DNA of 64,000 bases from an uncultured Gemmatimonadales bacterium (GTDB lineage Bacteria; Gemmatimonadota; Gemmatimonadetes; Longimicrobiales; Gaopeijiaceae): the NCBI GenBank assembly GCA_963809895.1, contig CAWELD010000003.1, positions 1 to 64,000 of the forward strand, given 5' to 3'. The notes beneath the pieces are model-generated. The model saw nothing but the letters and a program-made list of their open reading frames with translations, was not told the DNA's origin and searched no databases. Positions within the stretch are counted from its first letter, which is position 1. Every line of letters starts with the position of its first letter. The position numbers and the translations under genes are program-made. Of this stretch, positions 1-19,003 are shown piece after piece.

Positions 1-1091
1 GGGAGAGCTTCCGCCGCACCGCGGAGACGGCCGGCGCGGCACGGGAGGAGACCCTTGCCGCCGCCCGGCTCTCCGTCGCCCTGGGCACGGTCAACGGGCT
101 CACCCGTACAGCCGGAAACCTGCTCCTGACCTACATCGGGTGGCGGATGATCCTCGGAGGCGGCCTCACGCTGGGGAGCTTCATCGCCTTCACGGCTTAT
201 CTCGGCCGGGTGCGGGGACCGCTGGCGAGCATCAGTTCGCTCTTCAGCGACTTTCAGCGTACGGCCATTACGCTGGACAGGGTGTTCGAGCTTCTCGATG
301 AGCCACCCGAGGCGGAGCCCACGCTCCTCTATGATCCGGCGTACGCGCCCGCGCCGGTCCAGTTCGACGGTTCCATCCGGGTGGAGAACCTGCGCTTCCA
401 GTATCGGAGCGATGGCTTCGCCGTGGAGATTCCCGACCTGGACTTTTCGCCGGGATCGGTGACCGCCCTGGTCGGAGAGAGCGGCTCGGGAAAGTCCACA
501 CTCCTGCGGCTGCTCGCGGGCCTCGAGTGCCCGACCAGCGGCGCGATCCGGTATGGACGCCATGCTCATGACACCCTCCCACTGCCGTCGATTCGCCGGA
601 CGGTGGCGGTGGCATGGCAGGACGCGGACCTGCTTCGGGGCTCGCTGAGAAGCAACATCGCCTACGGCGTCGATCAGGTCAGCGAGCAGCGCCTGCGAGA
701 CGTCATTCGGGTGTGCCAGCTCGACACGTTGGTGGACGATCTCCCGGATGGACTCGACACGCCGGTGGCGGAGTGGGGCGCGACGCTCTCGGGTGGCCAG
801 CAGCAGCGGCTGTCGCTCGCTCGGGCTCTCATTCGAGAGACCCCGGTGCTCCTGCTCGACGAGATCACCTCGAACCTCGACAGCGACACGGAAGCGGCGC
901 TCTTGGATGACCTGATGCCCTTCGTCCGCGGGACGACCGTGATCGTCGCCACCCATCGGGGTGCGCTGCTCCGCCACGTCGACCGCGTGGTGAAGATCGC
1001 GAGTGGTCGGCTGGCGTTGGTGGAGGACGGCGATCGTGCCGTGCTCCGAGCGGGCCCCCCGGATGCCCTCTCGTCGGCGGTGGGATCGTGA
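1..1091 (+). CDS. ABC exporter, fused TMD+NBD (5' end outside window); likely peptide exporter
   Basis: Frame open from position 3; TM segment (GGLTLGSFIAFTAYL), Walker A GESGSGKS, signature LSGGQ, Walker B LLLDE, H-loop ATHR; stop overlaps next start (GTGA). Confidence 0.93.
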   Translation, partial: ESFRRTAETAGAAREETLAAARLSVALGTVNGLTRTAGNLLLTYIGWRMILGGGLTLGSFIAFTAYLGRVRGPLASISSLFSDFQRTAITLDRVFELLDEPPEAEPTLLYDPAYAPAPVQFDGSIRVENLRFQYRSDGFAVEIPDLDFSPGSVTALVGESGSGKSTLLRLLAGLECPTSGAIRYGRHAHDTLPLPSIRRTVAVAWQDADLLRGSLRSNIAYGVDQVSEQRLRDVIRVCQLDTLVDDLPDGLDTPVAEWGATLSGGQQQRLSLARALIRETPVLLLDEITSNLDSDTEAALLDDLMPFVRGTTVIVATHRGALLRHVDRVVKIASGRLALVEDGDRAVLRAGPPDALSSAVGS

Positions 1092-1894
1092 TCGGCCCGC
1101 TGACCCCCACGGGCCGGCGGCTCGTCGCTGAGGGGGACCGCCGGGAGGTCCGTCTGCCGGAGCTCGGCCGGGAGCCGGGCCGTGGCCTGCCGCTGCCGAG
1201 GTCTCTGCTCCTGGGTGCGTTGATCCTTCTGGCTATCACACTCGTCGCGGCGGCCATGATCCTGCCAAGGGCGATGGTCCCAATGCGGGCATCCGGGACA
1301 GGATGGGTGGAGCCCGCGCGAACCGCGGTCATCCGGGCTCCTGAGGCCAGTGTCGTGACGCAGGTGTTGGTGGCAGCCGGAGCGACAGTGTCCGTGGGAC
1401 AGCCGTTGGTGCGCTTGGAGGTGTCGCCGAACGCCGAGGATCGGCGTGAGGTCGTCCTTCGGGCGCCCAGTTCCGGGGTGGTCCAGGCGAGCGATCCGAG
1501 GGCGCTGGCAGCTCTAGCCGGTCGTTCTCTCATGCGTGACGAGTTGATCATTCAGCTCGTGGATCCGTCGGTCTGGGAGGTCCACTTCTTCGTGCCTGCG
1601 CTGGCCGTTCGACAGATCGGGCTCGGTGATACGGTCCGCGTGGAGATCGAGGCTCTCCAGGGCCTCGTCGACGATGCCCTGCGCGCCGAGGTGACCGGGG
1701 TGGGGACCCGGCCGTCGGCCGCTCCTGAACGCGAGGGCCTCTTCGAGGTGGTGGCCGCCCTCGATCTATCGTCTGACCCGCAAGTTGGGCAGGTGCTGCG
1801 AACAGGCTTCGATGCGCAGGTGGAGCTGGTGACCGGACGTATCTCCCTCGCCGGTCAACTCAGGCGGTGGGTACATCAGAGGTTCGGTCCATGA
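1088..1894 (+). CDS. HlyD/membrane-fusion-type adaptor lacking the coiled-coil hairpin
   Basis: Single N-terminal TM, lipoyl half motifs VIRAPEASVV..V..G..V..GQPLVRL and VLRAPSSGVV, C-terminal LRTGFDAQVELVTG; coupled to the ABC gene. Confidence 0.8.
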   Translation: MIGPLTPTGRRLVAEGDRREVRLPELGREPGRGLPLPRSLLLGALILLAITLVAAAMILPRAMVPMRASGTGWVEPARTAVIRAPEASVVTQVLVAAGATVSVGQPLVRLEVSPNAEDRREVVLRAPSSGVVQASDPRALAALAGRSLMRDELIIQLVDPSVWEVHFFVPALAVRQIGLGDTVRVEIEALQGLVDDALRAEVTGVGTRPSAAPEREGLFEVVAALDLSSDPQVGQVLRTGFDAQVELVTGRISLAGQLRRWVHQRFGP

Positions 1895-2640
1895 CGCGAG
1901 AGGAGCTGCGCGACCGGCTGCGGGCTGCCGCAGGACACGGCGTACGCGTGGCCGTGGTCGACAGCGGGTGGGAGGGCGGGATCGTGGACCCTCGCGTGGC
2001 CCCGGTCGTGGAACCGGGATCGCCAAGTCACCGAACGGGGGGAGATGAGAATGGCCATGGCACCGCCTGCGCGCTGCGCGTGCTGCAGGTCGCGCCGGCA
2101 GCCTCCATCGTGCCTGTGCGCGTGTTCCAACGGGTGCTGGAGACCTCCGTGTCGCGGCTGTGCGAGGGCATTGTCGCAGCCCGCGATTGCGGCGTGCAGA
2201 TCATCAACCTGAGCCTCGCGACACACCGGTCCGACGCCATTCGACCGCTCTACCGCGTCTGTGAGGAGACGCGGCGCATGGGTATCGTGATCGTGGCGTC
2301 CGCCCACAACCGAGGCGGACGCGCCGTGCCGGCCTACCTGGAGCCCGTCCTCTCGGTCGAGTCCGGCCCGCAGACCGAGTTCCTGGATTTCACGTACGAG
2401 CCGGAGGCCGCCATCGAATGCACCGCCGCCGCGCATGGTGTTCCGACTACGGGTCCAGACGGGCAGGCGGTGCGAAGGTCTGGTACCAGCATCGCAGCCG
2501 CCACCCTTTCGGGGATCGTGGCCCGTCTGCTGGAGATCGAACCCGGCGGTCTCGACCACGTGCGTCGGCTGCTGGCACTGACCTCCAGTTCCAACCCGGG
2601 AGACCTGGCTGCCGCTCGCGACATGGGGGGTGCGCCGTGA
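1891..2640 (+). CDS. Small S8 (subtilisin-like) serine peptidase, no signal or propeptide; candidate leader peptidase
   Basis: Catalytic motifs VAVVDSG, NGHGTACA, INLSL, ASAHN, SGTSIAA; ATGA overlap with upstream gene. Confidence 0.9.
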   Translation: MTREELRDRLRAAAGHGVRVAVVDSGWEGGIVDPRVAPVVEPGSPSHRTGGDENGHGTACALRVLQVAPAASIVPVRVFQRVLETSVSRLCEGIVAARDCGVQIINLSLATHRSDAIRPLYRVCEETRRMGIVIVASAHNRGGRAVPAYLEPVLSVESGPQTEFLDFTYEPEAAIECTAAAHGVPTTGPDGQAVRRSGTSIAAATLSGIVARLLEIEPGGLDHVRRLLALTSSSNPGDLAAARDMGGAP

Positions 2641-3875
2641 GCATGGCCGAACTGAGGCGGCCGTTGCTCTTGCTGCTATGCGGGAGCCTTTTCGGCTGTG
2701 ACGCATCCGCCCCTGCCGACAGTGATTCCAGCAGGGGCTACGCGGACTGGACAGCGACAGAGGAACTCCGCCTTGGCTCCCTGGACGACTCCGTGTACAG
2801 CTTCGCACCGATCGGGGCCGTCGCCGTGGGACCAGACCGGACCATGTACACGGCGCATCCCCAGGAGCGGCTCATCCGACGATGGTCCGTGGACGGAGCA
2901 CCAGACGGCACGATCGGTGGCAGGGGCCAGGGCCCCGGCGAGTTTGCGAGTATCGGCGCCATCGGCTTCACCGGCGACAGCCTCTGGGCCATGGATCTCC
3001 AGGGCCAGCGCGTCACGTACTTCGATCTCACCGGCACCGTGCTCGGGACCACGCCTCTGGAGATCGACACGCGCGCCCAACTTCAGGACCTCAATGCGGG
3101 ACGCCCCTACCCCCTGAGTGTCCTACCGGACGGCACGTTCTACGGCAGGCAGGCCGGGCTCATCCCGCAGATCGCCGGCACGGACTCCACGCGGATCCTG
3201 CATCTCCACCTCGACGCGACCTCGGCCATCCTGGACACGCTCTTCGTTCAGGTGGTGCACCGACGGGACGCCCTGGCGGTGCAGTCCCCCACGAGCGGTG
3301 GGTGGCTCATGGGCGCGCAGCCCTACGCGGACGCACCTGTCGCGTCGGCGGAGCCGTCGCTGCAGGCCCTGCTCGTCGCCGAGCGGCCGAGCTACACCGG
3401 CAACGGGACGCCCACGTTCCGGGTCACGCGCATCTCCATGTCCGGCGACACCGTGTTCCACCGGACGCTGCCGTACGACGCCGAGGCCCTGCCCGCCGAG
3501 ATCGTCGACCGTGTCATCGCGGGGATGGTGAACCGATGGGAGGCTCAAGAATCGGACGGTGAGCCTGCGTCGGCAGCGGCACTGACCCGATTGGCGAGGG
3601 ACGCCCTGTATGCGCCGGCCTGGTATCCCCCCTTCTCGGCGGTGGTGCTCGGGCGCGACGGCACCATCTGGCTCCGGGGCGCCCACGCCACCGGCGGACG
3701 CATCATCTGGACCGTTCTGGACGCGGAGGGCCATCCGGCTGGCCGAGTAGACCTGCCGGCGAGCCTCCGGGTCCTTGTCGCCACGCGCGACCGCGTGTGG
3801 GGCGTGCAGTCTGACCGGCTGGGTGTGTCCTACCTGTCTCGGTTCAGCGTTGGACCCGAGGCCACCGACCCATAG
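2637..3875 (+). CDS. 6-bladed beta-propeller lipoprotein
   Basis: Lipobox-like LLLLCGSLFGC; IGGRGQGPGEF motif; C-terminal DGTIW..WTVLD..G..GRV.LP; GTGA overlap with S8 gene. Confidence 0.8.
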   Translation: MSMAELRRPLLLLLCGSLFGCDASAPADSDSSRGYADWTATEELRLGSLDDSVYSFAPIGAVAVGPDRTMYTAHPQERLIRRWSVDGAPDGTIGGRGQGPGEFASIGAIGFTGDSLWAMDLQGQRVTYFDLTGTVLGTTPLEIDTRAQLQDLNAGRPYPLSVLPDGTFYGRQAGLIPQIAGTDSTRILHLHLDATSAILDTLFVQVVHRRDALAVQSPTSGGWLMGAQPYADAPVASAEPSLQALLVAERPSYTGNGTPTFRVTRISMSGDTVFHRTLPYDAEALPAEIVDRVIAGMVNRWEAQESDGEPASAAALTRLARDALYAPAWYPPFSAVVLGRDGTIWLRGAHATGGRIIWTVLDAEGHPAGRVDLPASLRVLVATRDRVWGVQSDRLGVSYLSRFSVGPEATDP

Positions 3876-3919
3876 CGCGTAGTCTGCGGCAGAGAATCCC
3901 GAACGAGTGGAGGCTGGAA

Positions 3920-5171
3920 TTGGACCGTCCCATCGAGATCCGGCACGACGGGCACACGCGCCAGGTGCCGCGCGACAAGGTGTACTTCTCCTTTGGCGAC
4001 GGTCGGCTGAGCTACGATTGCCGGAACTGCCAGATGAATTGCTGCCGCCGGGGCTTCGGCTACTGGCTCAACACGGAAGAAGAGCGTCTTGTCCAACTCG
4101 AGCAGCGGCCGCACGCTCGGTTCTTCACCGAGCCGGGACCTCTGCCAGGCTACGAGAAGATGCACAATCAGCCACCGGCGTGTTTCTTCCTGACCGACGA
4201 CGGGCTCTGCGGCATCCATGTCAAACACGGTGCTACCGCAAAGCCTCTGACGTGCAGCTTGTTCCCCTTCAACCGCTTTCTGCTGGCGGACGATCACCTG
4301 ATCGTTGGGCCCAAGGCTGGACTCTGTCCATTGGAGATCATGCCGTCGGACGAGCGGAGTGCACTCTCCAAGCACGACGAGATCTTCGCCGTGATGGCCG
4401 AGCGGGGACTGGACCGCAGGGTCGTGGAGGGCAGGGGATTGCTCCCTGACGTGGGGCCTCTCGTCGACCTGGAGCGCCGGATTGTTCTGCTATCAGAGGA
4501 GTTTCTGGTTTCCGACACGCCGCTGCTGGACTTCATCGATCAACAGATTGCCATGGGCCGGACGGTGCAGGAGGCCGCCACCACTGGCCACGACGCGGGA
4601 GCCCGTCCTCGCCGCACGCGACCTTCTGCGGCATGCCGCCGAGGTCCTCGGTGTCGATCGGAAGGACGTCGAGAGCTTTGACCCCGATGTCCGGCGGGCC
4701 GTCGTGGCGCTGACACCGGCGGTCCGCTCAGCGCTCGTCTTCTACGCTCTGGCAGGCCCGAAGGCCTGGCAGGGAGGCCTGATCTCGCTGGACCGCGTTC
4801 CAGGCGCCATTCTGGCCGTAGCTGTTCTCGGCCAACTGGCGAAGCTGGCCGGCATGTCCTCGGTCACGGTGCAGACGCTCTGGTCTTTCTTCAAGGAATA
4901 CCGAGCTCTGGTCTGGGCCATTGCGCACCTGGACAGTATTCCCGCGTGGAAGCTCGATCTTGCCGAAGACCCTGTCTTCGTAAGGACGCAGCGCGCCACC
5001 GAGGGCGGATTCGGTGACGTCGCCACGACGATCCTCCCATCCCGCCAGCAGCGCAATCCCACGACCCTCCTCGAGGCGCTCCGCTCTGCCGGTCGGTCGG
5101 CCAGCCACGACCAACGGACCAGGCTGGCCAAGCTGGCGAGCAAGCGCATGTATGGGAAGGTGACCGTGTGA
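3920..5171 (+). CDS. YkgJ/FliB-like cysteine-cluster (CxxCxxxCC) protein, split by one +1 frameshift near 4572-4585
   Basis: CRNCQMNCC and CFFLTDDGLCGIH..KPLTCSLFPF motifs; GGAGG RBS before TTG; ORFs 3920-4681 and 4482-5171 join into one ~415-aa frame by removing one base. Confidence 0.78.
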
Positions 5172-5696
5172 ACGCCCGTGGAGCCAATCGGACCATCAGC
5201 CCTGCCTTGAGGTCAGGCGGGTCGGCGATGATTTGCGGTTTCCGCTCAGTCCCAATCCTGTCGACATCTCTCGTGCAACAGCGAGGAGTGCAAGACCGAG
5301 TGATGTCTCATCTGGATCCCTTCGACCTCTGTCCGGCATCCGTGCTGCAGGAGGTTTCAGAGGGGATGCCCCTGCATTGGGTTGTGATACCATGGCCGGG
5401 GTCGCAGGCAATGGTGCGGGAGACTCGGGCTAGAGGGTCACAGTGGTCGAGCCCTCGGCCTACCTGGGACGGAGGGGCCCGGTCTTGTTGATCACTCTAT
5501 TTGCTGCCGTTGTCGGCCTGCCCCCTGCGCTCCCAGCCCCTGATACGCTGGGTGCCGTTCTGAGAGTGAAGGAGGTGAGGGGCTTCGTGCTTCGACGTTG
5601 CTACCAGTTGCTACCAGCGGCTCCCGTGCCGCTCGCGCAACGCTGCGGATCGCACTCCGTTAGGGTTCGCGGTCACTCCCAAGGGTCTAGGCGCGC

Positions 5697-6227
5697 GTGC
5701 CGGGGGCACCGCCCAGGACCCGCGCGATCTCCCACCAGGGTCCAGTCCTCGCCGGACCTTGGGACCTTGTTGGGACTCGGGCTGTCAGCCGGTCGGCCGT
5801 ACTGGACGAGACCCCCATCCGTCTTGCCGCGAACTCGCGAGCCAGCCCGTGGATCGAGGTGACTCGATGCAGCGACACGACCTGGCTGCTGTTCCCTGAC
5901 GAGCGGGGCATGTGGCACGCCCGTCGTTTGACCAGCGAGGTCCAAGCCCTGCTCGCGTGCTGCGAGACGCCCACCCCACCATGGGCGATCACCGCAACTA
6001 TTGCCGCCGCCAGCAACACGGACCCAGAGGAGATCGGCCCTTGGGTGCGTGAGCAACTGGACGCACTTACGCAGGCCGGAGTTCTCATCTCGGAACGACT
6101 CGCGGATGCTCTGCCTGCGGCGGCCTGGGCCGAATCATGGAGCGGTGATGGCAACCGCGATTCGCGAGTGGGTCGGTCGTTGGATACGGGGCCGGCACTG
6201 CCCTCCAATAGCGGGCCGTTCTGGTGA
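5697..6227 (+). CDS. Putative PqqD/RRE-like (winged-helix) peptide-binding protein; start uncertain
   Basis: Strand-like WLLFPDERGMWHARRL followed by helix pattern EVQALLACC-ETP-WAITATIAA-PEEIGPWVREQLDALTQAGVL; sits directly before the precursor gene. Confidence 0.5.
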   Translation: MPGAPPRTRAISHQGPVLAGPWDLVGTRAVSRSAVLDETPIRLAANSRASPWIEVTRCSDTTWLLFPDERGMWHARRLTSEVQALLACCETPTPPWAITATIAAASNTDPEEIGPWVREQLDALTQAGVLISERLADALPAAAWAESWSGDGNRDSRVGRSLDTGPALPSNSGPFW

Positions 6228-6480
6228 CCCATCGATCCAAGACGTGAGACTCTACTGCGACGCGCTCTGGCCGGTGCCGCCGGGAACCGCAACCTTCGCT
6301 CAACCCTCATCTTCTCGATGTCACACTTTGCCGCCCGCCTGCATCGGTTCCCCGCGGATCGCTGCATTTTGCCGGTGTCGGTCTGCTGGCCTGAGGGCCA
6401 CTATGCTCACAGGGCATGCATGAATGCAGCTTCAGTCGCCCGCGCGACCGATCTACGGGATCCGACAGGGAGAAACGAGG

Positions 6481-6798
6481 ATGAAGAAGATCCGCTTGGA
6501 CTTGGAGTCGCTGAAGGTCGAGTCCTTTGTTACGAATCGTCCCTCTGGCGCTAGGGAAGGCACCGTCTATGGGATGGGGGCGAATACGTATTGTGACTGG
6601 ACCTGCAACGAAGTAACCCCAAGCTGTAACGGGGATCCGGGATGCATCTCCGATGTCGACGACACCTGCGACTGGACCTACCCCCAGGCTACTACGTGTA
6701 CGTCTCCATATGGGACCACGACGGGGGGCGAGACGGAGGACTGGACTTGCGAGCCTTGCGCTGCTTCATGCAATAGCGAGGGTTGTAAGACGGATTGA
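6481..6798 (+). CDS. RiPP precursor peptide (105 aa): pinensin-family-like leader plus Cys/Thr/Asp-rich core
   Basis: Leader MKKIRLDLESLKVESF...EGTVYG; 74-aa core with 10 Cys, 19 Ser/Thr, 13 Asp/Glu; purine-rich RBS (GGGAGAAACGAGG) directly upstream. Confidence 0.88.
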   Translation: MKKIRLDLESLKVESFVTNRPSGAREGTVYGMGANTYCDWTCNEVTPSCNGDPGCISDVDDTCDWTYPQATTCTSPYGTTTGGETEDWTCEPCAASCNSEGCKTD

Positions 6799-6941
6799 TG
6801 CTCGCGTCGGTGCCGACTGCCCGAGATGCCTTGAGTTGCGGACCAGCTTCCGCTGGCGCATAACGGGGCCGGCCATTGCTCGGGTGTCGGTGTTGCGGAT
6901 GGTAGGGCTCGTGCAATTCCCCTTGGTCCCGGCGGCGTAAC

Positions 6942-8705
6942 GTGCTGGTTTCGAACTTGTTGACGCTTCTTGCGGCGTTAGGGAGCCAGCACGCCGTGAC
7001 GACGGATACGTTGGGTTCAGTTCGCCGGGTGAGCGAGGCGCTTAACGACTACTATTACGAGACCGTGGTGGATCCGCCGGGTAAACGGCATCTCCTGACC
7101 TCTCGTGACGCGGCGGGGGCGAGGCTCGGATGGATCTGCAGCCCCGACACTGGGGTTGGCTCGTGTACGGGGGGGGATTGGGTGCGGGGGAAGTGCCCAG
7201 CCGATGTCCGCTGTCATCCGCCGAATGATGAGCTCCTCGATGTTCTGGCGAGGTCCGCTGCGGAGAGTCCTGGGTCGGGGTTTGTCACCGGACAGGCCGT
7301 CTTCGCCTTTGCTCGATTTGGGCAACACTTGAAGGCCATGGGCGTTGCCGAGAGCTGCGAGGCGGCCGCCTGGTGGTGTGACGCGCTTAGGGGCCATGTC
7401 TACCGAGCCGTTGAGCGGGTCCAGGACGCAGAGGCGAGCTTCCGGCGCTCATTGTCGGTGGCTCCTGACTCCATCATCTGCCGCTTCAGCGATGCGACGT
7501 GGCTATTCGGATCGTGGTCTTCCCGGGCGCACCCCGTCGATCCGCCGGAGGCGTGGACGGAGTGGTCCGAGCAGCCGTGTGCGGTCCGGGCAGCGGTGTC
7601 CGACACGATCTGGTGGCTGGCTGACCCGCTGTACGTCGTGGAAGGCAATGATCGATGGGAGGAGCAGGTCGACCGAAGTCTGGCGGCCCGGTGGCGTCTC
7701 GAAGCCTCCATTGACGTCACGCTTCGGCCGGAGGTGCCGCTGCCTTGGCGAAACACGTATTGGGCGCGAGTGATTCGTCGAGGGCCTTGGGACTCGTTCG
7801 AGTACCTCAAAGTGGCGAGGGCCAACGGCATTTCCGCCCTCCTCTGGACCAGCAAGAAGGCCGCCCGCTACCACTTCGTGCCGGACTTCGAAGGCGAGGG
7901 CTTCTCGCACCCGACCTGGCGCCTCGAAGCCGACTTCGACGACGAGGGCTACACGCCGCCCTATGCGGCGTTCTACGCCCTCCCGATCCAGATCGCCCGC
8001 TTCCGCAAGCCCGACTCCACGGAGGACGCCTCCGCGTCTGGCACCATGCGCGTGGCCACCGCGAGCAGCGCTCTGGGCACGCCCATCGAAGCTGCGGTGG
8101 ACTCCGCCCACCTCATTCTCACCGACGCACCCGGCAGCTTCCCCCTGCACCTGGAGGCGCCTTTCCACGAGGGTAAGACGGTCTACTTGGCCGAGACCCC
8201 GCCGAAGCGGTACGTGACGAGCCTCGAGGTACTGACCCCGGCCGGCATCGGCTGGCACCGGGAGATGCTGGAGCCCATGGAGCTGAATGGCCCGGGGCTC
8301 TCGGACATCCTGCTCTACGAGCCGCTGGGCTTCGCCACGCCCGACTCATTGCTCGCGGCGACCTCGATGATGCTGGGCACGACAGAGCTCGAAGACGTGC
8401 CGGAAGTGGGGCTCTACTGGGAGGTGTACGGCGCGGAGGCGCAGCAGCCGCTGCAGTTCCAGCTCCGGCTGGAGCGAGAGGGCGGTGGCTTCCTGGACAA
8501 GCTGCAACGGCTGCTGCCGGGGGGTCCAGAGGAAGCAACAGGTACGGTGATATGGAACGAGACGGCGACGGGTCCGGTATCGGCGAACTCCATCGTGCTG
8601 GACCTCAGGACGCTCGATTCTGGGAGCTACACGCTGGTGCTGCGGGCCCGGTGGGAGGGGCAGGATGCGCCGGTGGAGAGCCGGCGTAGACTCCTGATCC
8701 GGTAG
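6942..8705 (+). CDS. Secreted hypothetical protein with Cys-rich/TPR-like N-half and Ig-like C-terminus
   Basis: 587-aa ORF with signal-like N-terminus; motifs WWCDALRGHV, WWLADPLY, GLSDILL, GLYWEVYG, LDSGSYTLVL. Confidence 0.7.
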   Translation: MLVSNLLTLLAALGSQHAVTTDTLGSVRRVSEALNDYYYETVVDPPGKRHLLTSRDAAGARLGWICSPDTGVGSCTGGDWVRGKCPADVRCHPPNDELLDVLARSAAESPGSGFVTGQAVFAFARFGQHLKAMGVAESCEAAAWWCDALRGHVYRAVERVQDAEASFRRSLSVAPDSIICRFSDATWLFGSWSSRAHPVDPPEAWTEWSEQPCAVRAAVSDTIWWLADPLYVVEGNDRWEEQVDRSLAARWRLEASIDVTLRPEVPLPWRNTYWARVIRRGPWDSFEYLKVARANGISALLWTSKKAARYHFVPDFEGEGFSHPTWRLEADFDDEGYTPPYAAFYALPIQIARFRKPDSTEDASASGTMRVATASSALGTPIEAAVDSAHLILTDAPGSFPLHLEAPFHEGKTVYLAETPPKRYVTSLEVLTPAGIGWHREMLEPMELNGPGLSDILLYEPLGFATPDSLLAATSMMLGTTELEDVPEVGLYWEVYGAEAQQPLQFQLRLEREGGGFLDKLQRLLPGGPEEATGTVIWNETATGPVSANSIVLDLRTLDSGSYTLVLRARWEGQDAPVESRRRLLIR

Positions 8706-8898
8706 AGGCCCCGAAGCGACGACGATCCTCCTGTCCCGCCAGCAGATGCCTTCGGCTCCAGGGAGGGTGTTCCCCCGCGCCGACAGTGTCACAGCCAGTG
8801 CCCACACCCACCGCTGACGGCCACCGCCTGCCCCCGGCGAGGGCTCAAGAAATCACGTAGTCAAGGGCTTTTCCGCAGCGGACCGCCGCGCTTCAGAC

Positions 8899-8942
8899 GC
8901 TTTGCAAGCAGGAGGTCACGGGTTCGAATCCCGTTGGCTCCA
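8899..8942 (+). mobile_element. Displaced 3' half of tRNA-Ala(TGC); putative att site at the end of an integrated island
   Basis: GC-TTTGCAA-GCAGG-AGGTC-ACGGGTTCGAATCCCGT-TGGCTCCA gives anticodon loop, T-arm and 3' acceptor strand; no matching 5' acceptor or D-arm upstream. Confidence 0.85.
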
Positions 8943-9096
8943 TTTAAGTTAACAGAACGCGTAATCTCTACAGTGCACGTATCGTGCACTCGCGGACCTC
9001 TTTCGCCGGTGCCATGTGCGGTGGTTCGGTGGGAAGGGCAGGAGTTCCAGGACGCGTGGGTCGAATCCTGCTATGCCAGTGATCCGAGGGTGGGGC

Positions 9097-9504
9097 GTGT
9101 CTAACCGTGACGTAGTTCTCTTCTTGGGTGCCGGTTTCTCGCACGACGCCGACCTCCCGTTGCTTTCCAACTTCGGGCTCAAGGCACCGCTGTCAGAGTT
9201 CGAGCTGCAGAACAAGGATGGCCCCTTCGAGCGCGAGATGGCCGCCGCCGCACGCACCTACGAGTCGTTCCGAGATGCTCTCGTTGATCGTGGTGCCCTG
9301 ACCGGGGACGCGGTGCAGAACGTCGAGGCGGCCTTCTGTATTGCGGAGGCCCTGAAAGAGGCGATCCTCAAGTACCGGGACGATCTCAAGTGGATCGTCG
9401 GCTTCATCCAGTACGCCACGCCGATCATGGAAACCACGCGGCAGTGGGGAAGGGAAATCCCCAGGAATCAGGCGAAGATCGCCGGATTGGCCCCTACGCT
9501 CTGA
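9097..9504 (+). pseudogene. Truncated SIR2-like protein (N-terminal motif only), possibly chimeric
   Basis: VVLFLGAGFSHDADLP matches the SIR2 GAGxS..GLP motif; later TxNYD and HG motifs absent; only 135 aa. Confidence 0.55.
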
Positions 9505-9565
9505 CTCCCGCTTCAACGTGTAAGGGACTCCTGTGACGCCGAGCTCCTCGGCTAACCGTCGCCCA

Positions 9566-10480
9566 TCATCGCGGCACATACACCACGGTCCGGATTTGGG
9601 GCTCGCGTCCCAAGATCACGTTGAACAGTCCCACTCCGCGGTTGCCCACGCCGAATACCGGTATCACTACCGAAATTCCGTCACCATCGATCGACACACG
9701 GGCTTTCCCGACTACAACGACGAAGGCTGGCAGATCCGTGCACGCGACCTGCGGAGAATCTGGACCTGGAGGAGTCTCTAACCCCGGCAAGCGCAGGCCC
9801 GCGGCCGCAAAGCATTGGAGCGCAGGGAGGAGGTCCGCCGCCTCCACCCCTTGGGCCCGCAGTCCACGGCGCCTCTCCTCCAAGACGCCCCGAGGTAGCC
9901 TGACGACGCTTGGTGCCCGGAAGGTCTCCGCCAAGACAATCGCGGGTTGCACGTCCACGGAGACCTGGGGCAAGCTCAACGCCCTCGCGACCAGGGTCGC
10001 GATCGTCGCGAGATCCTCGATCGAGGTCAGTCCTCCACCCCCTCTTCCGTCGGCCACAACCCATCCGGATCGGGTGACCTGACCCACGGCCCAACTGCCG
10101 TCACGAGCCCGCCTGAGAAGTCGCCACTCCTCACGATAGGACACGCTTCCGTCGTATACTTCCAGCCATACCCGACCCTGATCTTCGTTCTGGGTCAGGG
10201 AGTCCACGACGAGGAACTTTGTCGGACGGGTCGCAGGCTCGAGACAATTCCGAATGACGCGCTCGGAGAGCAGCTCGGGCAGCTCGCGCGAGGATCCGAG
10301 CAGTGAATCAAGACTGCATCCTTCGACAGCGAAGCCCTCGTCCTCGAACTGGGCGCGGAAGGACACCACGGTCTCGAGCAACTCGACATCTCCGGATCCC
10401 GTCGCCTGTCCGGAGGCGGGATGGGGTCGGCCAGCGAGACCGCTCAGAACCAGCGCTACGGAGAGGAGTAGTCGATGCAC
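9566..10480 (-). CDS. Secreted hypothetical protein
   Basis: 304-aa ORF, signal peptide HRLLLSVALVLSGLAG; overlaps end of upstream gene. Confidence 0.6.
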   Translation of the reverse strand: MHRLLLSVALVLSGLAGRPHPASGQATGSGDVELLETVVSFRAQFEDEGFAVEGCSLDSLLGSSRELPELLSERVIRNCLEPATRPTKFLVVDSLTQNEDQGRVWLEVYDGSVSYREEWRLLRRARDGSWAVGQVTRSGWVVADGRGGGGLTSIEDLATIATLVARALSLPQVSVDVQPAIVLAETFRAPSVVRLPRGVLEERRRGLRAQGVEAADLLPALQCFAAAGLRLPGLETPPGPDSPQVACTDLPAFVVVVGKARVSIDGDGISVVIPVFGVGNRGVGLFNVILGREPQIRTVVYVPR

Positions 10481-11706
10481 GAGTCGGGCCCATAGTTCAA
10501 GTAACTGTACGGGGCGGTCTGGTATTGTAACCCATAGGGCGGTACGTTGATGTCATCGTTGGGTCCATGATCGGGACTGAATACATGCATGGCCTCGTGA
10601 AGGAGCGAGTTGGCCAAGTCGTACATCGGCGCGTTCCCTGCTAACACGTCGTCCATGTACGACGCGTCGATGTGGATTATCCCGGTCAACCCGTCGTAGA
10701 GGGCCATGTGCGTCTGCTCCTCTTCCCCTACGTCGGTACTGCCCTGTTGCACCATGCCGCTGCCCAGGAGTGATTGAAAGGTGTCAAGAGCCTGCTGGCA
10801 GGCATCTGCCACCGTCGCATCGCTGATGGCAGAGAAGTCGGCCAGGAACCCCTCCAAGGCGGCGTCAACAAGGCTATCCTGCTGTTCGGTCATAGGGATG
10901 ACGCAGGTCGAATCAGCTCTCGGGTCGCACTCGGGTTCGGGATCGGGATTCGGGTCTTCCCCCGATCCGCCGCCAGAGCTGCCGCCACCGGGATCAGTGC
11001 ATTCGGTGGCACGTGCGATCCGGGTATTCGGCGGAGCTTGCTTCCCGATCAGCTTCCCGCCCAGAGGTCGGACGGTCGGCGACTCCACCTGAGTACAACC
11101 CCCGCCATTACCGTTGTAGCCACAAGAGAGGACATACAGGACATCGCCATTCTCATCCGCCATGTAGTAGCAATAATCATAGTGATCGTAAGGATCCCAG
11201 TTGAACTCCGCGTGCGCGATGTCCAACCACACCACGCCCGATGGGTACACCGAGGGGCCGGCTCCCGAGCCAAAGGACACCCCGCCCCGCCACCCGTTGC
11301 CGGCTGCGTGGTCCCCATTGCCTGGCGCCCAAGAGATCCGATCGAGTGCGACCTCGCGGTCCGACGCGGTAACATTGCAGGTGCCTCGATATAGGACGGC
11401 ACCGCCGCGGACACGATAGGACACAGAGAACGGGTCGGGTTCTTCCGCGCCTGCGGGGGCGATCGTCCGCTCAATAAGGAGATAGCGATCGTCAGGCAAT
11501 GCATACTCGAGTAGACATTGCCCAACGGCGAGGCTCTCAAGCACTGCTTGAACCTCTTGGAGGCCGCTCGCAGTGCCGCGGGCGCGATCGCCAGGCGGCA
11601 AGACGTCTGAAGCTCGGGGAACGGTCGCTAGCTCGGGTGAATCGGCGCTCGGTTCGAGAGGAGTGCGGGACACATCCCCACAGGCTGTGAGCACGACGGC
11701 AGCCAA
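10456..11706 (-). CDS. Lipoprotein with C-terminal HExxH zinc-metallopeptidase-like domain; start uncertain
   Basis: Lipobox VVLTAC; Gly/Pro linker PGGGSSGGGSGEDPNPDPEP; SLLHEAMHVF. Confidence 0.68.
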   Translation of the reverse strand: MAAVVLTACGDVSRTPLEPSADSPELATVPRASDVLPPGDRARGTASGLQEVQAVLESLAVGQCLLEYALPDDRYLLIERTIAPAGAEEPDPFSVSYRVRGGAVLYRGTCNVTASDREVALDRISWAPGNGDHAAGNGWRGGVSFGSGAGPSVYPSGVVWLDIAHAEFNWDPYDHYDYCYYMADENGDVLYVLSCGYNGNGGGCTQVESPTVRPLGGKLIGKQAPPNTRIARATECTDPGGGSSGGGSGEDPNPDPEPECDPRADSTCVIPMTEQQDSLVDAALEGFLADFSAISDATVADACQQALDTFQSLLGSGMVQQGSTDVGEEEQTHMALYDGLTGIIHIDASYMDDVLAGNAPMYDLANSLLHEAMHVFSPDHGPNDDINVPPYGLQYQTAPYSYLNYGPDSCIDYSSP

Positions 11707-11819
11707 AACGGAGGTGATTCACCCCTCGTGCCTTTCCCTTGCTGGTAAGTTACACTCGACCGAGCGTTTGGTCCTCTGACAGGAGCACTCCCTCAGACGC
11801 GAGCCCGCGAACGCGGCAT

Positions 11820-12078
11820 GTGTCTCCCTGGGTCCCTGGGGACACCTCGTTCTTCCCGGAGCCCACGGTGATCGCCCCCACCTGGCCCGGCGTGCCGACG
11901 CCGGTCCCCCAAGCCGAGAGCGATGAGCCCGGGAGCTTCAAGCTCGGCGCAATCGTGGGTGGCGTGGTCGCGTACATCCTGCTGTCCCAGGACGCCGACG
12001 GAGTCGGCCGTCTTCCCCTTCGTACCGATCTGCGCCCTGATCGGCGGTGTCCTCTTCTGGACGATCGGGATCGGGTGA
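11820..12078 (+). pseudogene. Remnant of small membrane protein gene (5' end unclear, frameshift near 12000)
   Basis: Two hydrophobic helices FKLGAIVGGVVAYILL and, one frame over, AVFPFVPICALIGGVLFWTIGIG-stop. Confidence 0.35.
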
Positions 12079-12090
12079 CGTCCGCGGCGC

Positions 12091-13212
12091 TCACCCGCCC
12101 CGCTCGAGCGCGTACACCCGGACGTGGTCGACGTCGTACTCGTCTCGCCAGATTCCCAGAACACCCGTGGCAGCGACGTCGCTGGCGATGAACCCGGCGG
12201 GCATGCGGACCGTCGCGAGGTGGGCGCCCCCGGAATCGTAGACCTGCCAGGTGGCCGCCTCACGCGGATCGAGGGCATGCTCGCGGATCCACAGGTTGCC
12301 CTCGTCATCGACGAGCAGAGCCGACATGACCGGAAGGCGCTCCGGAAACTCCATGTCTCGATACCAGGCCCGCGAAGCCGCGGTCCCTGGGGCCAGGAAT
12401 CGCTCGATGACGCCGCTGTCGATCTTCCGACCGACGTGCCCATCCCCGATCACGCCCAGAGGCTCACCGCTCCGCGAGAAGGCGTGCACGAGGAAGCTGT
12501 CGGATCTGGCCGCGTAGATCCGGTCCGGCGCCGTCGCGATCAGGGTGGTAGCGCCCAGCGGTTGGGGGCCTAGATCGCCGCCCACCATGATGGCGTCGAT
12601 GGAGAAGCTTCCGATCACGACGCGTTCGCCGCTCGGTGAGGTGATCTCGAGCCGCACCTCCCGCGTTTGCGGACCCTCGACGGGAGGCATGGGGAGGCGC
12701 TCGCTCGAGAGGACGAACGTGCCGTCCACCGCGCATCGCAGGCGTCGGGGGCTCCAGATCCCGCCCGACGCGTCCGCAGCCCGTAATTCCCCCTGGGAGA
12801 ATTCCCGCTTCAGCTCTCCATCCAATCCGAACGCCGAGATCCGATCATGTCCGGAGTCCCACACCGTGACGCTCGTCGAGTCGCAGGCCATGGGTGCCGA
12901 CATTCCCAGGAACTCGCCGGGACCGTCGCCCGCTCTGCCCGCATTCATGATCCGGCGGCCCTCGGTATCGTAGACCGCAACCCGGTGGCTCAGGACGTCG
13001 CTCGCCATGACGAGTCCCCGGGGATGCCAGGCGACGCCCGCGATCCGGCCCCATTCCACGCCCTGCGCCGGTCCGATCTCGAGGGTGGGTCGGTCCGACA
13101 GGGTCCAGGTTGCCGGCCTCCCGGCCTGGAGAGCCCGTACCGCCCCGGGCATGCCCGCTGAGAGCAGCAGACACGTCAGTACGGCACTGGTGGATCGTCT
13201 GGAGCGCTTCAT
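12091..13212 (-). CDS. Secreted 6-bladed beta-propeller protein
   Basis: Signal peptide; AGRAGDGPGEF; LVDDEGNLW; RDEYDVDHVRVY C-terminus. Confidence 0.82.
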   Translation of the reverse strand: MKRSRRSTSAVLTCLLLSAGMPGAVRALQAGRPATWTLSDRPTLEIGPAQGVEWGRIAGVAWHPRGLVMASDVLSHRVAVYDTEGRRIMNAGRAGDGPGEFLGMSAPMACDSTSVTVWDSGHDRISAFGLDGELKREFSQGELRAADASGGIWSPRRLRCAVDGTFVLSSERLPMPPVEGPQTREVRLEITSPSGERVVIGSFSIDAIMVGGDLGPQPLGATTLIATAPDRIYAARSDSFLVHAFSRSGEPLGVIGDGHVGRKIDSGVIERFLAPGTAASRAWYRDMEFPERLPVMSALLVDDEGNLWIREHALDPREAATWQVYDSGGAHLATVRMPAGFIASDVAATGVLGIWRDEYDVDHVRVYALERGG

Positions 13213-14243
13213 CGTTCCTGGAGCCTACTACTGCCGCCGGGGCCCGTACTCAGGCGCACCTCGGTCCCGGCCACCCGGATGATCATGGTGCCTCCATCCT
13301 CGCTCACCGTCACCGTGGCGGGCGCTTCCGACCGGACGTTGACGCGGACGTCTCCGATGGAGCCGGTGTACCGGTCCGTGGCCGGTGCCAGGGTTTCGCG
13401 CGCCCCCACGTCGAGGGTCGTCTGGTACCGGCTCCCATTCCGGTCCAGCGTCAACGCAAGCGCCTGTCCGGGTGCTGCGGCTCCGAGCGCCTCGCCGGCC
13501 CTGCGGCTGGTGATGGCCGCCCCGGCCACCTCCAGCAGCACGTCTCCCGGGCGAATCCCCGCTGCATCGGCCGGGCCGGAGGGCGCGACGGAGTACACCA
13601 CCGGGGGCTCGATGGAATGCCACCGGGGGAACGGGTCTCCCGTCTCGCGTTCCCAGCCACATCGGCGACAGGCAAGGGCCAGCCCCAGGCGCCCCGGCGG
13701 GAGCAGATCAGGCAGAGTCGGCACGGGGCCCGGTGAGCCGCGACCACCTGCGGCGCTCACCGGGGGTGCGAGCGACCTGGCGCTGGGGGCTTGCACGGGC
13801 ACGGCGTAGGCTCCCATGGCGCGAGGGTCCTGGGGACAGATGAGAGCGGCGTGCAAGGCCACGGCGATGTCGCGCCCACCCCGTCGGACCGTGAGCTCGA
13901 CCTCCTCGTCCGGGGCCACCTCCGCGAGCCTGCGCGCACCGTCCTGGGTCGTGAGGCGTCGGCCGTCCACCGCCACGATGCTATCTCTGGGCTGGAGCTT
14001 TCCGGCGGCCGGCCCTCCAGCCTCCACGGAGAGGACGTGGATGGGAGACCGGAAACTCCACGGACGTTCCGGCCAGCGGGCCCTGCTGACCGTGCAGTCG
14101 CAGGAGATGGTAAAGCCGAGATGTCCCACGGGGTCCGTCGACCCAGGGCACGTCGCCTCCTGACCTGCTGCAGCGCCGGCGAGCCCGAGAAGCAGCATGC
14201 CCGTCGTAGCAGGCCAACCGTTCGTCCATCGCATTCTGTTCAT
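13209..14243 (-). CDS. Secreted tandem-PDZ domain protein
   Basis: Two PDZ signatures (VEAGGPAAGKLQPRDSIVAVDG; VAPSGPADAAGIRPGDVLLEVAG); signal peptide. Confidence 0.85.
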   Translation of the reverse strand: MNRMRWTNGWPATTGMLLLGLAGAAAGQEATCPGSTDPVGHLGFTISCDCTVSRARWPERPWSFRSPIHVLSVEAGGPAAGKLQPRDSIVAVDGRRLTTQDGARRLAEVAPDEEVELTVRRGGRDIAVALHAALICPQDPRAMGAYAVPVQAPSARSLAPPVSAAGGRGSPGPVPTLPDLLPPGRLGLALACRRCGWERETGDPFPRWHSIEPPVVYSVAPSGPADAAGIRPGDVLLEVAGAAITSRRAGEALGAAAPGQALALTLDRNGSRYQTTLDVGARETLAPATDRYTGSIGDVRVNVRSEAPATVTVSEDGGTMIIRVAGTEVRLSTGPGGSSRLQER

Positions 14244-14252
14244 GGTCTGACC

Positions 14253-14546
14253 TCAGAACCAGACGACAGTGTAGTCCGCCGGCAGTGGCTCGCCACCTGC
14301 AGTGCCCGGAAGGCCTGCCGGGGGAGGGGCCTGCCACGCGCGTCCAGCGAGGACGCCGGCGGCGAACAGGGCGATCCCTGCGGCTGCGGCTGCCGGCCTC
14401 CGCATGCGCAGGACACGATCCCGGGCCGTAGACCCGGACGCGCGCGCAAGCACGGCGTCCTCGATGCTCTCCCGGGGAAACGGGGGAGGCTCGTGGTAGG
14501 ATCGAAGTTGCTCACGCAGGTCGTCGACCTTTCGGTGATCATTCAT
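14253..14546 (-). CDS. Putative anti-sigma factor (single TM)
   Basis: Overlaps ECF sigma stop; YHEPPPFPRE followed by TM AAAGIALFAAGVLAGR. Confidence 0.7.
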   Translation of the reverse strand: MNDHRKVDDLREQLRSYHEPPPFPRESIEDAVLARASGSTARDRVLRMRRPAAAAAGIALFAAGVLAGRAWQAPPPAGLPGTAGGEPLPADYTVVWF

Positions 14547-15150
14547 CTCGAAACTCCTTTCGCAGGTCGCTCAGCTCTTCTCTGAGTTTGGCTCGCGCAC
14601 GGGAGAGCCGTGCCCGGGACGAGCCTGGTGCGATCTCGAGCGCTTCGCCGATCTCCTCGTGGGTGTAGCCTTCGAGGTCGTGCAGCAGGACCACCCATCG
14701 GAGGCCCTCGGGGAGCGATTCCACGGCATCGCGGACCCGCGCCGCCAGAAGGGGGTCGCCGGGAGGGCACTCGGGCTCGGAAGCGGGGCGGCGCTCGAGC
14801 AGCCGAAGCCGCCGGGCGCGCTTCCGCAGCTGGTCCCGCGCCAGGTTGAGCGCCAGGCTCGCCAACCAGCCTCGAACCGTCCCGCTGCCCCGAAACCGGT
14901 CCGCCTTCCGAAAGGCGAGCAGGAAGGTCTCCTGGGTGAGGTCGTGGGCCGCGTCGTAGTCGCCGGTGAACCGGTAGACCAGACGCCACACGCTCTCGCC
15001 GTGGGCAGCGAGAAAGGCCCGCTGAGCCGCGTGCTCTCCCGAGCCGGCTCGAGCCAGCAACGCGCCGTCACCCTCCGCCTCCGCGCCACGGGCCGCGGAG
15101 CGCCGTCTCGACACGTCGTCGCTTCCGGGGTCGGTCCTTGGATCGCTCAC
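14539..15150 (-). CDS. ECF sigma-70 factor
   Basis: Region 2 AHDLTQETFL..FRG..GWL; region 4 VVLLHDLEGYTHEEIGEALEIAPGSSRARLSRAR. Confidence 0.93.
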   Translation of the reverse strand: MSDPRTDPGSDDVSRRRSAARGAEAEGDGALLARAGSGEHAAQRAFLAAHGESVWRLVYRFTGDYDAAHDLTQETFLLAFRKADRFRGSGTVRGWLASLALNLARDQLRKRARRLRLLERRPASEPECPPGDPLLAARVRDAVESLPEGLRWVVLLHDLEGYTHEEIGEALEIAPGSSRARLSRARAKLREELSDLRKEFRDE

Positions 15151-15269
15151 ATGAAGTAGACGGCACCAGGCGTGGATGACGTTGCGTGCCTTCCGACCCA
15201 CACATGCAGCACATCGGGGCCGTCGCGTCGTCCATAGAGATGAAACGCGATTCCAACTGGAGCAACCCG

Positions 15270-16619: not shown

Positions 16620-16738
16620 GGCCGGCTGTTTGCTGGCGGTGTTGATCCTGGTGTCGCTGCTCGCATGCCCGGCCCGGCGCGCTTCCTCGGTCAGCCCGCA
16701 GACAGCGCTGAGAGCGGAGTAGGGTCTACCCCGCTCGC

Positions 16739-17356
16739 TCAGCCCACCGGGGCGCCTGCGACGGCGCCAACCATACGTGCCGCCACGTCGGCCGCCCTGT
16801 CGTCCTCCAGCCCCGACCGTGCGAGGATCTGCCACGTGTTGAAGTCCATGGCCAGCCGGAGGGCCGCCAGGAGCGATTCCGCGCCTTCGTCGGTTTCGCT
16901 CCAGCCCCCGGCGAGTACGGCGAGCACGGCCTGCATCCAGCCTCCGAGAAGATCCTCCATGATGTCGCGGAGAGGCGGTACGGACGGGGTATCCCGAATC
17001 ACGTTGGCCAGCATCGCCTCCCGCTGGCGGTACCAGGCGTAGGTCTCCTCCAGAGCCCAGCGGAGACGGACCTCCGGGTCGGGGACCTCCCGCCACTCAG
17101 CCGGGTCCGGGAAGGGGTTCTCGGTGGCCCAGTGCGTCGAGCAGGCGTGAAGGAGATCCTTCTCCGTGGGAAAGTGGTTGTAGACCGTCATCCGGCTCAC
17201 GCCCGCCAGCTTGGCCACGTCGGTGATGGTGGTCTTGGCGGGACCCACGGTGCCGTGAAGCTCCACGGCGGCTTCCGTGATGCGCCGATGCGTCTCGGCT
17301 TCCCGCCTCGCGCGCTTGCGCTTGTGGTACGGTCTCGTGGAGTCGTCGTCAGTCAT
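16739..17356 (-). CDS. TetR/AcrR family regulator
   Basis: HTH TTITDVAKLAGVSRMTVYNHFPT. Confidence 0.93.
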   Translation of the reverse strand: MTDDDSTRPYHKRKRARREAETHRRITEAAVELHGTVGPAKTTITDVAKLAGVSRMTVYNHFPTEKDLLHACSTHWATENPFPDPAEWREVPDPEVRLRWALEETYAWYRQREAMLANVIRDTPSVPPLRDIMEDLLGGWMQAVLAVLAGGWSETDEGAESLLAALRLAMDFNTWQILARSGLEDDRAADVAARMVGAVAGAPVG

Positions 17357-17358
17357 AA

Positions 17359-17441
17359 TTCATTATACGCCTTGTATCGCGAACTTGACAAGCGCCGGTG
17401 AGGTGGTGTAAGCTCCCTTTGTTCATTATACAGCATGTCAA
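17359..17441. promoter_or_regulatory. Back-to-back sigma70 promoters with two candidate TetR operators
   Basis: + strand TTGACA(17385-90)-18 nt-TAAGCT; - strand TTGTCA(17391-86)-18 nt-TATAAT(17367-62); TTCATTATAC repeated at 17359 and 17422. Confidence 0.65.
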
Positions 17442-17511
17442 CTCAAATAACTGGAGCGCTCTGCTCCGGTGTCGGACATTGGCAGGCTGACACTCGCAAG
17501 GGGAGGGAAGG

Positions 17512-18300: not shown

Positions 18301-18447
18301 CGAGTAGGTAGGGCACCGGTCGGGATCTGTGCGAAGCCGTTGCGCACGCCCCGATCGGTGCCCCATGACAGCCACGGCACCGGTTTTTCGCAATGCGGGT
18401 GAGCACGGCAACGCCCGTGACGCGAACCCTCCGACCGGGAGTCCTCG

Positions 18448-18996: not shown

Positions 18997-19003
18997 ATGG
19001 CAG

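Follow-up and report, generated by a model that had tools for sequence, protein, structure and literature searches.

The pinensin cluster of Chitinophaga pinensis is a class I lanthipeptide system in which LanB is divided between a glutamylation protein and an elimination protein, with LanC at their side. PMC7268733 describes the split LanB for pinensin and notes a LanM-like cyclase domain for pinensin-family LanCs. Here we analyse a peptide locus that opens contig C3 (CAWELD010000003.1) of an uncultured Gemmatimonadales bacterium (assembly GCA_963809895.1, genome G000). The window, i.e. the whole stretch of DNA analysed, is the opening 64 kb (64,000 nucleotides) of this contig, its position 1 being the first base of C3. 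The locus encodes a precursor peptide with a pinensin-type leader and a stand-alone RiPP recognition element (RRE; RiPP, peptide synthesized by the ribosome and modified after translation), together with export and processing proteins. Judged from sequence, it belongs, with moderate probability, to the pinensin-type class I lanthipeptides (split LanB plus LanC), in rearranged form.

The likeness to pinensin lies in an NF038180-type leader, in the division of LanB in same-genus relatives into PF04738 and PF14028 proteins beside LanC, and in the resemblance of the congeneric LanC to a LanM-type cyclase (TIGR03897, positions 551-930). Unlike pinensin, the family belongs to a high-GC lineage, its cores are long (73-83 residues with 10-13 Cys), and it has an RRE at the C-terminus of LanC, a partner protein of ~590 residues, and an ATP-binding cassette (ABC) exporter with a HlyD adaptor and a small S8 protease; G000 itself has neither an assembled LanB nor a LanC catalytic domain at the locus.

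With the nisin type (NisB/NisC/NisT/NisP) the family shares a dehydratase, a cyclase, an ABC exporter and a subtilisin-like leader peptidase, as well as leader recognition through an RRE fold, the RREs of NisB and MibB being among the fold matches reported below. In contrast, the RRE resides on LanC or stands alone, whereas in NisB and MibB it lies inside LanB; the S8 protease of the window has only 249 residues, with no signal peptide or anchor evident by eye; and the HlyD adaptor implies that the peptide passes two membranes on its way out.

Precursor peptide and its homologues

The precursor gene (6481-6798, + strand), with GGGAG/GAGG upstream of its ATG, encodes 105 residues. Its leader is of the pinensin type, MKKIRLDLESLKVESF...GTVYGM. 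The core of 73 residues, also Trp-rich, contains 10 Cys, 13 Asp/Glu and 19 Ser/Thr (5 Ser and 14 Thr); it provides Ser/Thr as donors along with Cys as acceptors. The initial annotation, made from the letters of the window alone, had recognized a leader/core peptide here. It is real and conserved: homologues P0007 and P0008 are 73% and 62% identical to it, residues 1-18 of the leader are invariant in all three, and a GTV.GM motif follows ~10 residues further on.

Against NF038180, the pinensin leader model with a cut-off of 24 bits, the window peptide reaches 22.2 bits and P0007 23.4. Five of eight related precursors pass: that of the congener G006 (31.3), P0008 (28.6) and three from a sister family, f2 (31.5, 25.4 and 24.7). 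The model gave no match with the LanA of G003, a second congener, or with the 53-residue LanA of G039, an f2 genome. Identity to the window peptide is 51% for the G003 LanA and 47% for that of G006.

G000 has a single precursor. Within the genus, matches occur in 3/20 genomes (G000, G003 and G006); the order sample gave 36 of 401, with 33 of 71 in family f2, often at many copies in one genome, and the phylum sample 5 of 401. The genomes sampled for these counts are related and hence not independent of each other.

Complete clusters in related genomes

Gene calls, for the window and its relatives alike, come from a picker of open reading frames (ORFs) based on GC content at third codon positions (GC3), whose set is not complete. 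On contig C16 of G003, a single strand carries an extracytoplasmic function (ECF) sigma factor, LanB_N (902 residues, PF04738 at 1.4e-50), LanB_C (313 residues, PF14028 at 1.4e-37, thiopeptide-type TIGR03891), LanC with an RRE-like tail (657 residues, PF05147 at 1.9e-47), LanA and the partner gene, after which the contig ends; ABC, HlyD and S8 genes are found at the end of its contig C17. In G006, contig C48 terminates with LanB_N, LanB_C and LanC+RRE, and contig C292 holds LanA, the partner, ABC and S8. Across these two same-genus genomes the order reads LanB_N, LanB_C, LanC+RRE, LanA, the ~590-residue partner, ABC, HlyD and S8. G039 presents LanB_N, LanB_C/LanC, the 53-residue LanA, ABC, HlyD and S8 on one strand.

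LanA, the partner and ABC-HlyD-S8 are common to the window, G003 and G006; ABC-HlyD-S8 is shared with G039 and G043 as well. Since LanB/LanC clusters surround homologous precursors, the family is that of a split-LanB class I lanthipeptide of pinensin type. The locus had initially been described as an uncharacterised RiPP system: a RiPP locus it is, and its congeners place it in a characterised kind of family.

The partner in the window (6942-8705, + strand; 587 residues) is 46% and 41% identical to the gene that follows LanA in G003 and G006, respectively. It has a hydrophobic segment at its N-terminus and no match in Pfam or NCBIfam. Its neighbours in a language-model search are Gemmatimonadota clusters, one auto-named GWxTD and others with TPR, which we take as a lead only.

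Precursors of family f2, found in G039, G043 and 31 further genomes, share the leader pattern L.L..L.V[EQ]SF...GTV. They are numerous, scattered and mostly orphan, with at least ten in G039 and at least seven in G043 (loci L106-L132); their cores are very varied and Cys-rich, some with CDASCNGT repeats. Most of these f2 precursors lie amid housekeeping genes, and no LanB or LanC occurred among 34 neighbouring proteins scanned at eight of their sites; the LanB/LanC clusters of these genomes are few and located elsewhere. Many scattered precursors with few synthetase clusters recall the prochlorosin-like arrangement of one synthetase serving many precursors, from which the family differs in having a class I split LanB and not a class II ProcM, and G000 in having one precursor. 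These large sets could be mined for lanthipeptides. Just upstream of two f2 precursor sites we observed a flavin amine-oxidase gene (L127, 7404-9191; L131, 6177-7967).

A stand-alone RRE related to LanC

The ORF at 5697-6227 (+ strand), with a conserved domain at ~5840-6170, had been called an RRE at first reading, and correctly so. An AlphaFold 2 model built on a six-row alignment has predicted local distance difference test (pLDDT) values of 74-91 across residues 40-140. It contains three strands (54-58, 61-67 and 73-77) followed by three helices (80-88, 95-106 and 110-126). The best Foldseek matches in the PDB are almost all RREs, namely those of MibB, TbiB1, PqqD, TbtB, NisB, TglHI and PbtF. 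MibB matched at 1.9e-3 and TbiB1 with bound leader at 2.9e-3, with a template modelling score of 0.73-0.78 on the target; all E-values are weaker than 1e-3. The ORF gave no match at E <= 0.01 against Pfam, including the PqqD family. The complex predicted from RRE residues 35-150 and leader residues 1-40 had a score of 0.11, the mark being 0.32, a value that points in neither direction.

An exhaustive phmmer search returned 11 proteins at E <= 1e-3, the window's own entry P0009 included. Five are long proteins (551-692 residues), LANC_like by Pfam, of which only the last ~100 residues align; P0013 and P0014 are shorter fragments. P0010, in contrast, is itself a stand-alone homologue of 163 residues, 67-68% identical to the window RRE. 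P0012 and P0019 are repetitive proteins that we regarded as spurious and set aside. By its modelled fold, then, the window ORF is an RRE, and it shares homology with the domain at the C-terminus of LanC cyclases.

A profile made from seven LanC-RRE fusions and run over 3800-6500 in six frames matched only through its positions 540-647 of 659 (E 3.6e-25); besides the RRE, no remnant of the LanC cyclase domain was present in this interval. We doubt that the detached RRE is dead DNA because it shares 68% identity over 125 residues with P0010 and both ORFs are free of stops; by this conservation it is probably functional. P0010 found no match in G039, G043, G028, G279 or G286, and when the RRE profile was run on another 400 genomes from the phylum sample it gave only three marginal matches.

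Absence of LanB from the assembly and of LanC from the locus

In G000, PF04738, the LanB glutamylation protein present in both G003 and G006, had 0 matches, and tblastn with the LanB_N and LanB_C proteins of G003 found nothing. No LanC (PF05147) adjoins the precursor: in any frame of 3800-6500 there is the RRE tail only. The sole LanC-like gene of the genome (C3, 2.7247 Mb; 356 residues) stands amid unrelated genes. The initial annotation had seen no LanB, LanC, radical SAM (S-adenosylmethionine), YcaO or ATP-grasp gene, in agreement with the lack of any such Pfam match in the ORFs scanned over 1 to ~25 kb, an incomplete set. It had also reasoned that a standard synthetase might explain all modifications, with the FliB/YkgJ-like gene not conserved in such clusters. 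The relatives show exactly this; G000 itself does not.

The enzymes could also lie in unassembled DNA, since the contig begins inside the ABC gene. About 230 N-terminal residues of the exporter are absent from the whole assembly of G000 (11 contigs, 5.33 Mb, 69% GC, estimated 95% complete), and none of the 22 contig ends checked contains them. An ordinary complete cluster would then continue upstream of position 1 with LanB_N, LanB_C and LanC, perhaps behind a repeat or an insertion sequence (IS), and the RRE would have arisen by gene fission or as an additional copy. The intact precursor and RRE are in keeping with this. So is a paralogous locus at 650-668 kb of C3 with three transposases and a truncated ABC gene, which makes IS-caused breaks plausible.

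This second copy of the export module (C3, ~650-670 kb; L001 and L182) is clearly decayed. In it, an N-truncated ABC gene is followed by a short HlyD, by S8 and by a propeller. Also present are a piece of the partner gene, an rve integrase, PemK and RHH as a toxin-antitoxin pair, a 131-residue Cys-rich protein with a signal peptide, and further propellers; the transposases are of the Mutator, DDE_3 and DDE_Tnp_1_4 types.

On the other hand, the synthetase genes of G003, G006 and G039 lie directly upstream of LanA and not of ABC. In the window, a FliB-like gene directly precedes the RRE, and no LanC remnant is left in any frame. Synteny moreover predicts the partner and LanA upstream of ABC, so that each of the two would have to be present twice. 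Because the FliB-like gene occupies the place that synthetases hold upstream of LanA in congeners, we think it unlikely, if with an appreciable chance, that the enzymes hide in the gap. Thioether rings cannot form here unless LanB and LanC sit in DNA ahead of position 1 that was not assembled; failing that, the peptide would leave unmodified, or modified another way.

Export and processing module

All genes listed in the initial annotation were found on the + strand, and the overlaps it described, GTGA (1088), ATGA (1891) and GTGA (2637), are real. The LanT-like ABC exporter, truncated by the contig start, is represented by its C-terminal 362 residues (3-1091; ABC_tran 3.2e-28). The GTGA at its stop overlaps the gene for a HlyD-type periplasmic adaptor of 268 residues (1088-1894; HlyD_3 5.4e-10), and the ATGA of the latter overlaps that for the small subtilisin S8 of 249 residues (1891-2640; Peptidase_S8 7.4e-13), which carries the motifs VAVVDSG, HGT and GTSIAA.

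The window ABC protein is 63% identical to that of G006, which follows LanA and the partner, and 58% to that of G003 C17; full-length relatives have 585-601 residues and no C39 peptidase domain. HlyD homologues stand between ABC and S8 in G003, G039, G043 and at locus L025, described below. S8 homologues lie beside lanthipeptide genes in G006 C292 (53% identity), G039 C6 (43%), G003 C17 (42-43%) and G043 C87 (42%). Such flanking in four genomes bears out the earlier assignment of ABC, HlyD and S8 as RiPP parts. As ABC-HlyD-S8 belongs to the lanthipeptide clusters of congeners, we read these proteins as exporter, adaptor and leader peptidase of the precursor family; S8 likely has the role of LanP. 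Its cut in the precursor would be expected at the conserved GTV[YF][GA]M motif or beyond it.

The S8 protease also recalls another pathway. In the maturation of quinohemoprotein amine dehydrogenase (QHNDH), QhpC is the peptide, QhpD a radical SAM enzyme, QhpE a subtilisin and QhpF an ABC exporter. Here too a small subtilisin without an evident signal peptide (by eye) and an ABC exporter accompany a Cys-rich leader peptide, and the best NCBIfam model of S8 is QhpE (NF049966; positions 1-203 of 219, 4.4e-32). The core, rich in Cys, Asp, Glu and Trp, could on this analogy receive Cys-to-Asp/Glu thioethers, followed by cleavage by a QhpE-like subtilisin and export by a QhpF-like transporter. The QhpE score of 111.2 bits is nevertheless well below the cut-off of 165, the ORFs scanned over the opening 25 kb held no radical SAM (QhpD-like) match, no dehydrogenase subunits were seen, and the homologous precursors sit in LanB/LanC clusters. 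We rejected a QhpC-type peptide on these grounds, as highly improbable.

The propeller and FliB-like genes

Between S8 and the RRE lie two genes that we do not count among the conserved parts of the lanthipeptide family. The first (2637-3875, + strand) encodes a lipoprotein with the lipobox LFGC and an NHL/DUF5128-like six-bladed propeller (DUF5128 at 1e-3, below cut-off). It belongs to a very large family of NHL-like paralogues, with 51 tblastn high-scoring segment pairs in G000. At L001 and L025 a propeller comes after S8, and at L025 and L026 one stands ahead of a FliB-like gene; in G003, G039 and G043, S8 is not followed by a propeller. The 3' ends of contigs C3 and C6 both run out inside propeller genes.

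The second encodes a FliB/YkgJ-like protein with a CxxCxxCC cluster and appears as two pieces on the + strand: an N-terminal part in frame 2 (3920-4600), with the motif CRNCQMNCC and no Pfam match at 0.01, and a C-terminal part in frame 0 (4593-5171), which aligns to residues ~235-420 of the homologues P0002 and P0003. We consider it a single frameshifted gene because the GC3 plot switches frame and these homologues, of 420 and 421 residues, cover both pieces; the +1 frameshift falls within ~4560-4610 of a gene of ~420 codons. P0002 and P0003 are 59% and 56% identical to the window protein. Public contigs from four DNA runs, short and of low depth, included none that spans 4560-4600.

The lysine-N-methylase FliB is the nearest described enzyme. 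According to PMC8598068, Salmonella FliB methylates lysine in the cytosol before export and depends on a [4Fe-4S] cluster and on SAM. The window protein resembles it in its N-terminal CxxCxxCC cluster and in a length of ~400-420 residues. Unlike it, the window protein is frameshifted and has no flagellar context, and it falls far below the cut-off of the flagellin lysine-N-methylase equivalog model NF038110 (19 bits, and 22.9 for P0002, with a cut-off of 85, over ~35 residues). P0002 passes PF03692 with 25.3 bits (cut-off 23); its AlphaFold 2 model, with a mean pLDDT of 53, was too poor for a fold search. Language-model neighbours include clusters bearing FliB_C.

The initial annotation saw in this protein the only visible candidate for a RiPP maturase. 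On such an account, LanB/LanC chemistry would have been replaced: the LanC-derived RRE would pass the leader to the FliB-like [4Fe-4S]/SAM enzyme, which would modify the core as maturase or tailoring methylase, for instance at the Lys peculiar to this lineage or at Cys, and S8, ABC, HlyD and the periplasmic propeller would finish and export the product. The distribution is complementary, with a FliB-like gene and no LanB in G000, and LanB plus LanC without a FliB-like match in G003 and G006. A stand-alone RRE has been kept in a second lineage, an invariant Lys is restricted to the precursors of the window sub-branch, and FliB-like genes recur beside genes for small Cys-rich peptides. The catalytic properties of the Salmonella enzyme would also suit such a role.

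The comparative data speak otherwise. With the N-terminal part as query, 2 of 61 relatives were positive, and no FliB-like gene was found in G003, G006, G039 or G043; in the G000 assembly the gene is frameshifted. Locus L025 has the order ABC (601 residues, ABC_membrane plus ABC_tran; 71% identity), HlyD, S8 (68%), propeller (52%) and FliB-like gene (58%). It retains the FliB-like gene with neither an RRE nor LanA downstream, where only a partner-gene fragment and a RelB antitoxin are present. A limited literature search found no paper pairing YkgJ with a RiPP.

FliB-like loci in other genomes and metagenomes

Scans of public collections yielded 20 genome and 80 metagenome FliB-like loci, of which the ten weakest genome loci (L012-L021) were dropped and 90 analysed. 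By BLAST, the window RRE and precursor had no match in these 90 loci. No peptide with the leader motif was found in their 678,384 bases, the lone match of the pattern lying inside a FliB-like ORF; in a control, the same search recovered 4/4 known precursors. The co-occurrence of YkgJ homologues with similar precursors, put forward as a check of the original proposal, was thus seen in 0/90 loci.

What these genes do have for neighbours are MacB_PCD/FtsX permeases (19 loci), DsbA-like thioredoxins (10 loci), two clusters of NHL/DUF5128 propellers (8 and 7 loci) and a 215-residue protein without a Pfam match (8 loci), as grouped by neighbour clustering. Peptides with a Sec signal and 6-8 Cys numbered 15 within 3 kb of the FliB-like gene, at 10 loci, and 11 beyond, at least one of the latter being apparently spurious; the same filter applied to the whole 5.3-Mb G000 returned five.

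Co-occurrence was counted in the 20 loci of full-length type whose upstream DNA measured 4 kb or more. A propeller was present in 8 of them, the Cys-rich Sec peptides in 7, MacB permease likewise in 7, the 215-residue protein in 5 and a DsbA-like protein in 3, with at least one of these in 13/20 loci. The typical order (L033, L037) is peptide(s), propeller, 215-residue protein, MacB and FliB-like gene. Across Gemmatimonadota, Acidobacteriota and metagenomes, this recurrent operon opens with one to three Sec peptides with 6-8 Cys and ends with the FliB-like gene, sometimes with a DsbA-like protein added. We observed it at L033 (416-6474), L037 (2561-8777), L005 (1849-6956), L007 (8308-11377), L098 and L099. 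It may be a system that makes and exports disulfide-rich peptides.

Propellers, MacB-type permeases, DsbA-like proteins and secreted Cys-rich peptides again distinguish this branch from the flagellar FliB. From these neighbours we infer that the FliB-like gene belongs to another type of peptide-related operon, whose peptides bear Sec signals and not RiPP leaders. In the window it is probably a passenger from such an operon and not a new peptide-modifying enzyme, and we consider its service as maturase here, whether as partner of the stand-alone RRE or as a replacement for LanB/LanC chemistry, improbable.

At four other of the 90 loci (L009, L032, L073 and L104) the FliB-like gene is likewise split into two ORFs. 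Such breaks may be common assembly errors in high-GC metagenomes, or reflect frequent gene decay.

A probable mosaic locus and its significance

In the complete form of the system, by analogy with the class I mechanism, the RRE at the C-terminus of LanC would bind the leader of the Cys/Ser/Thr-rich precursor, the two-piece LanB would dehydrate Ser/Thr, and LanC would close the thioether rings. The peptide would then be exported by ABC and the HlyD adaptor, and the small, presumably cytoplasmic S8 protease would remove the leader. In both congeners the ~590-residue protein is encoded directly after the precursor. In G000, LanB and the LanC catalytic domain would have been lost or separated from the locus, which would retain the precursor, the detached RRE, the partner and ABC-HlyD-S8. 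The propeller/FliB-like pair would have been wedged between S8 and the RRE from the other recurrent operon type.

Several observations sit uneasily with such a rearranged lanthipeptide locus. As G000 has no assembled LanB or LanC, it is called a lanthipeptide locus by homology and synteny only, and the window peptide itself lies just under the NF038180 cut-off. Gene order is permuted: the partner precedes ABC in congeners, and here ABC-HlyD-S8 is upstream of RRE-LanA-partner. A C-terminal Lys (CKTD/E) is confined to the three precursors of the window sub-branch and absent from those of G003 and G006. The precursor and detached RRE are intact, and at least one further lineage has conserved them (P0007, P0010), so that a working arrangement without LanC fits better than simple decay. 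The window and L025 are two independent cases in which propeller and FliB-like genes come after the export module, and the two genes adjoin each other in L026; the pair may hence be functionally tied to that module. Finally, FliB-like genes lie beside small Cys-rich peptide genes in over a third (7/20) of the loci with sufficient upstream DNA.

If the locus is the rearranged family member that we favour, an apparently enzyme-less RiPP becomes a datable event inside a known family. It would amount to a natural experiment, in which one precursor family is found with split LanB and LanC-RRE in G003 and G006, and with the detached RRE only in G000. This contrast would show the role of a leader-recognition domain once its catalytic partner is gone; the placement of an RRE on LanC is in itself unusual by comparison with NisB and MibB. 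The recurrent operon of Cys-rich peptides, propeller, thioredoxin-like protein, MacB and FliB-like protein is the first clue from gene context to what this CxxCxxCC branch does. On the improbable reading of the FliB-like protein as a maturase, such enzymes would more widely act in the cytosol to modify small Cys-rich peptides bound for export, in Gemmatimonadota and Acidobacteriota alike.

Further features of the window

A scan of 5000-7100 for promoters and terminators gave nothing exceeding shuffled sequences. In run X3, one low-depth contig joins 5268 to 6479 and skips the RRE ORF, its shorter side being 49 letters long. If real, the junction may stem from a related strain in which the precursor directly follows the FliB-like gene; it may equally be an artefact.

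Downstream of the partner, 8899-8945 (+ strand) resembles the 3' portion of a tRNA-Ala(TGC) gene, whose 5' half precedes 8899 in contigs of other runs; ARAGORN reports no tRNA within 1-20000. It may be what is left of an attachment site where an island carrying the locus ends. Further on, at 12091-15201 of the - strand, an ECF sigma factor, a small ORF, a double-PDZ protein and a DUF5128-like propeller stand in a row; an ECF sigma factor opens the lanthipeptide cluster of G003 as well.

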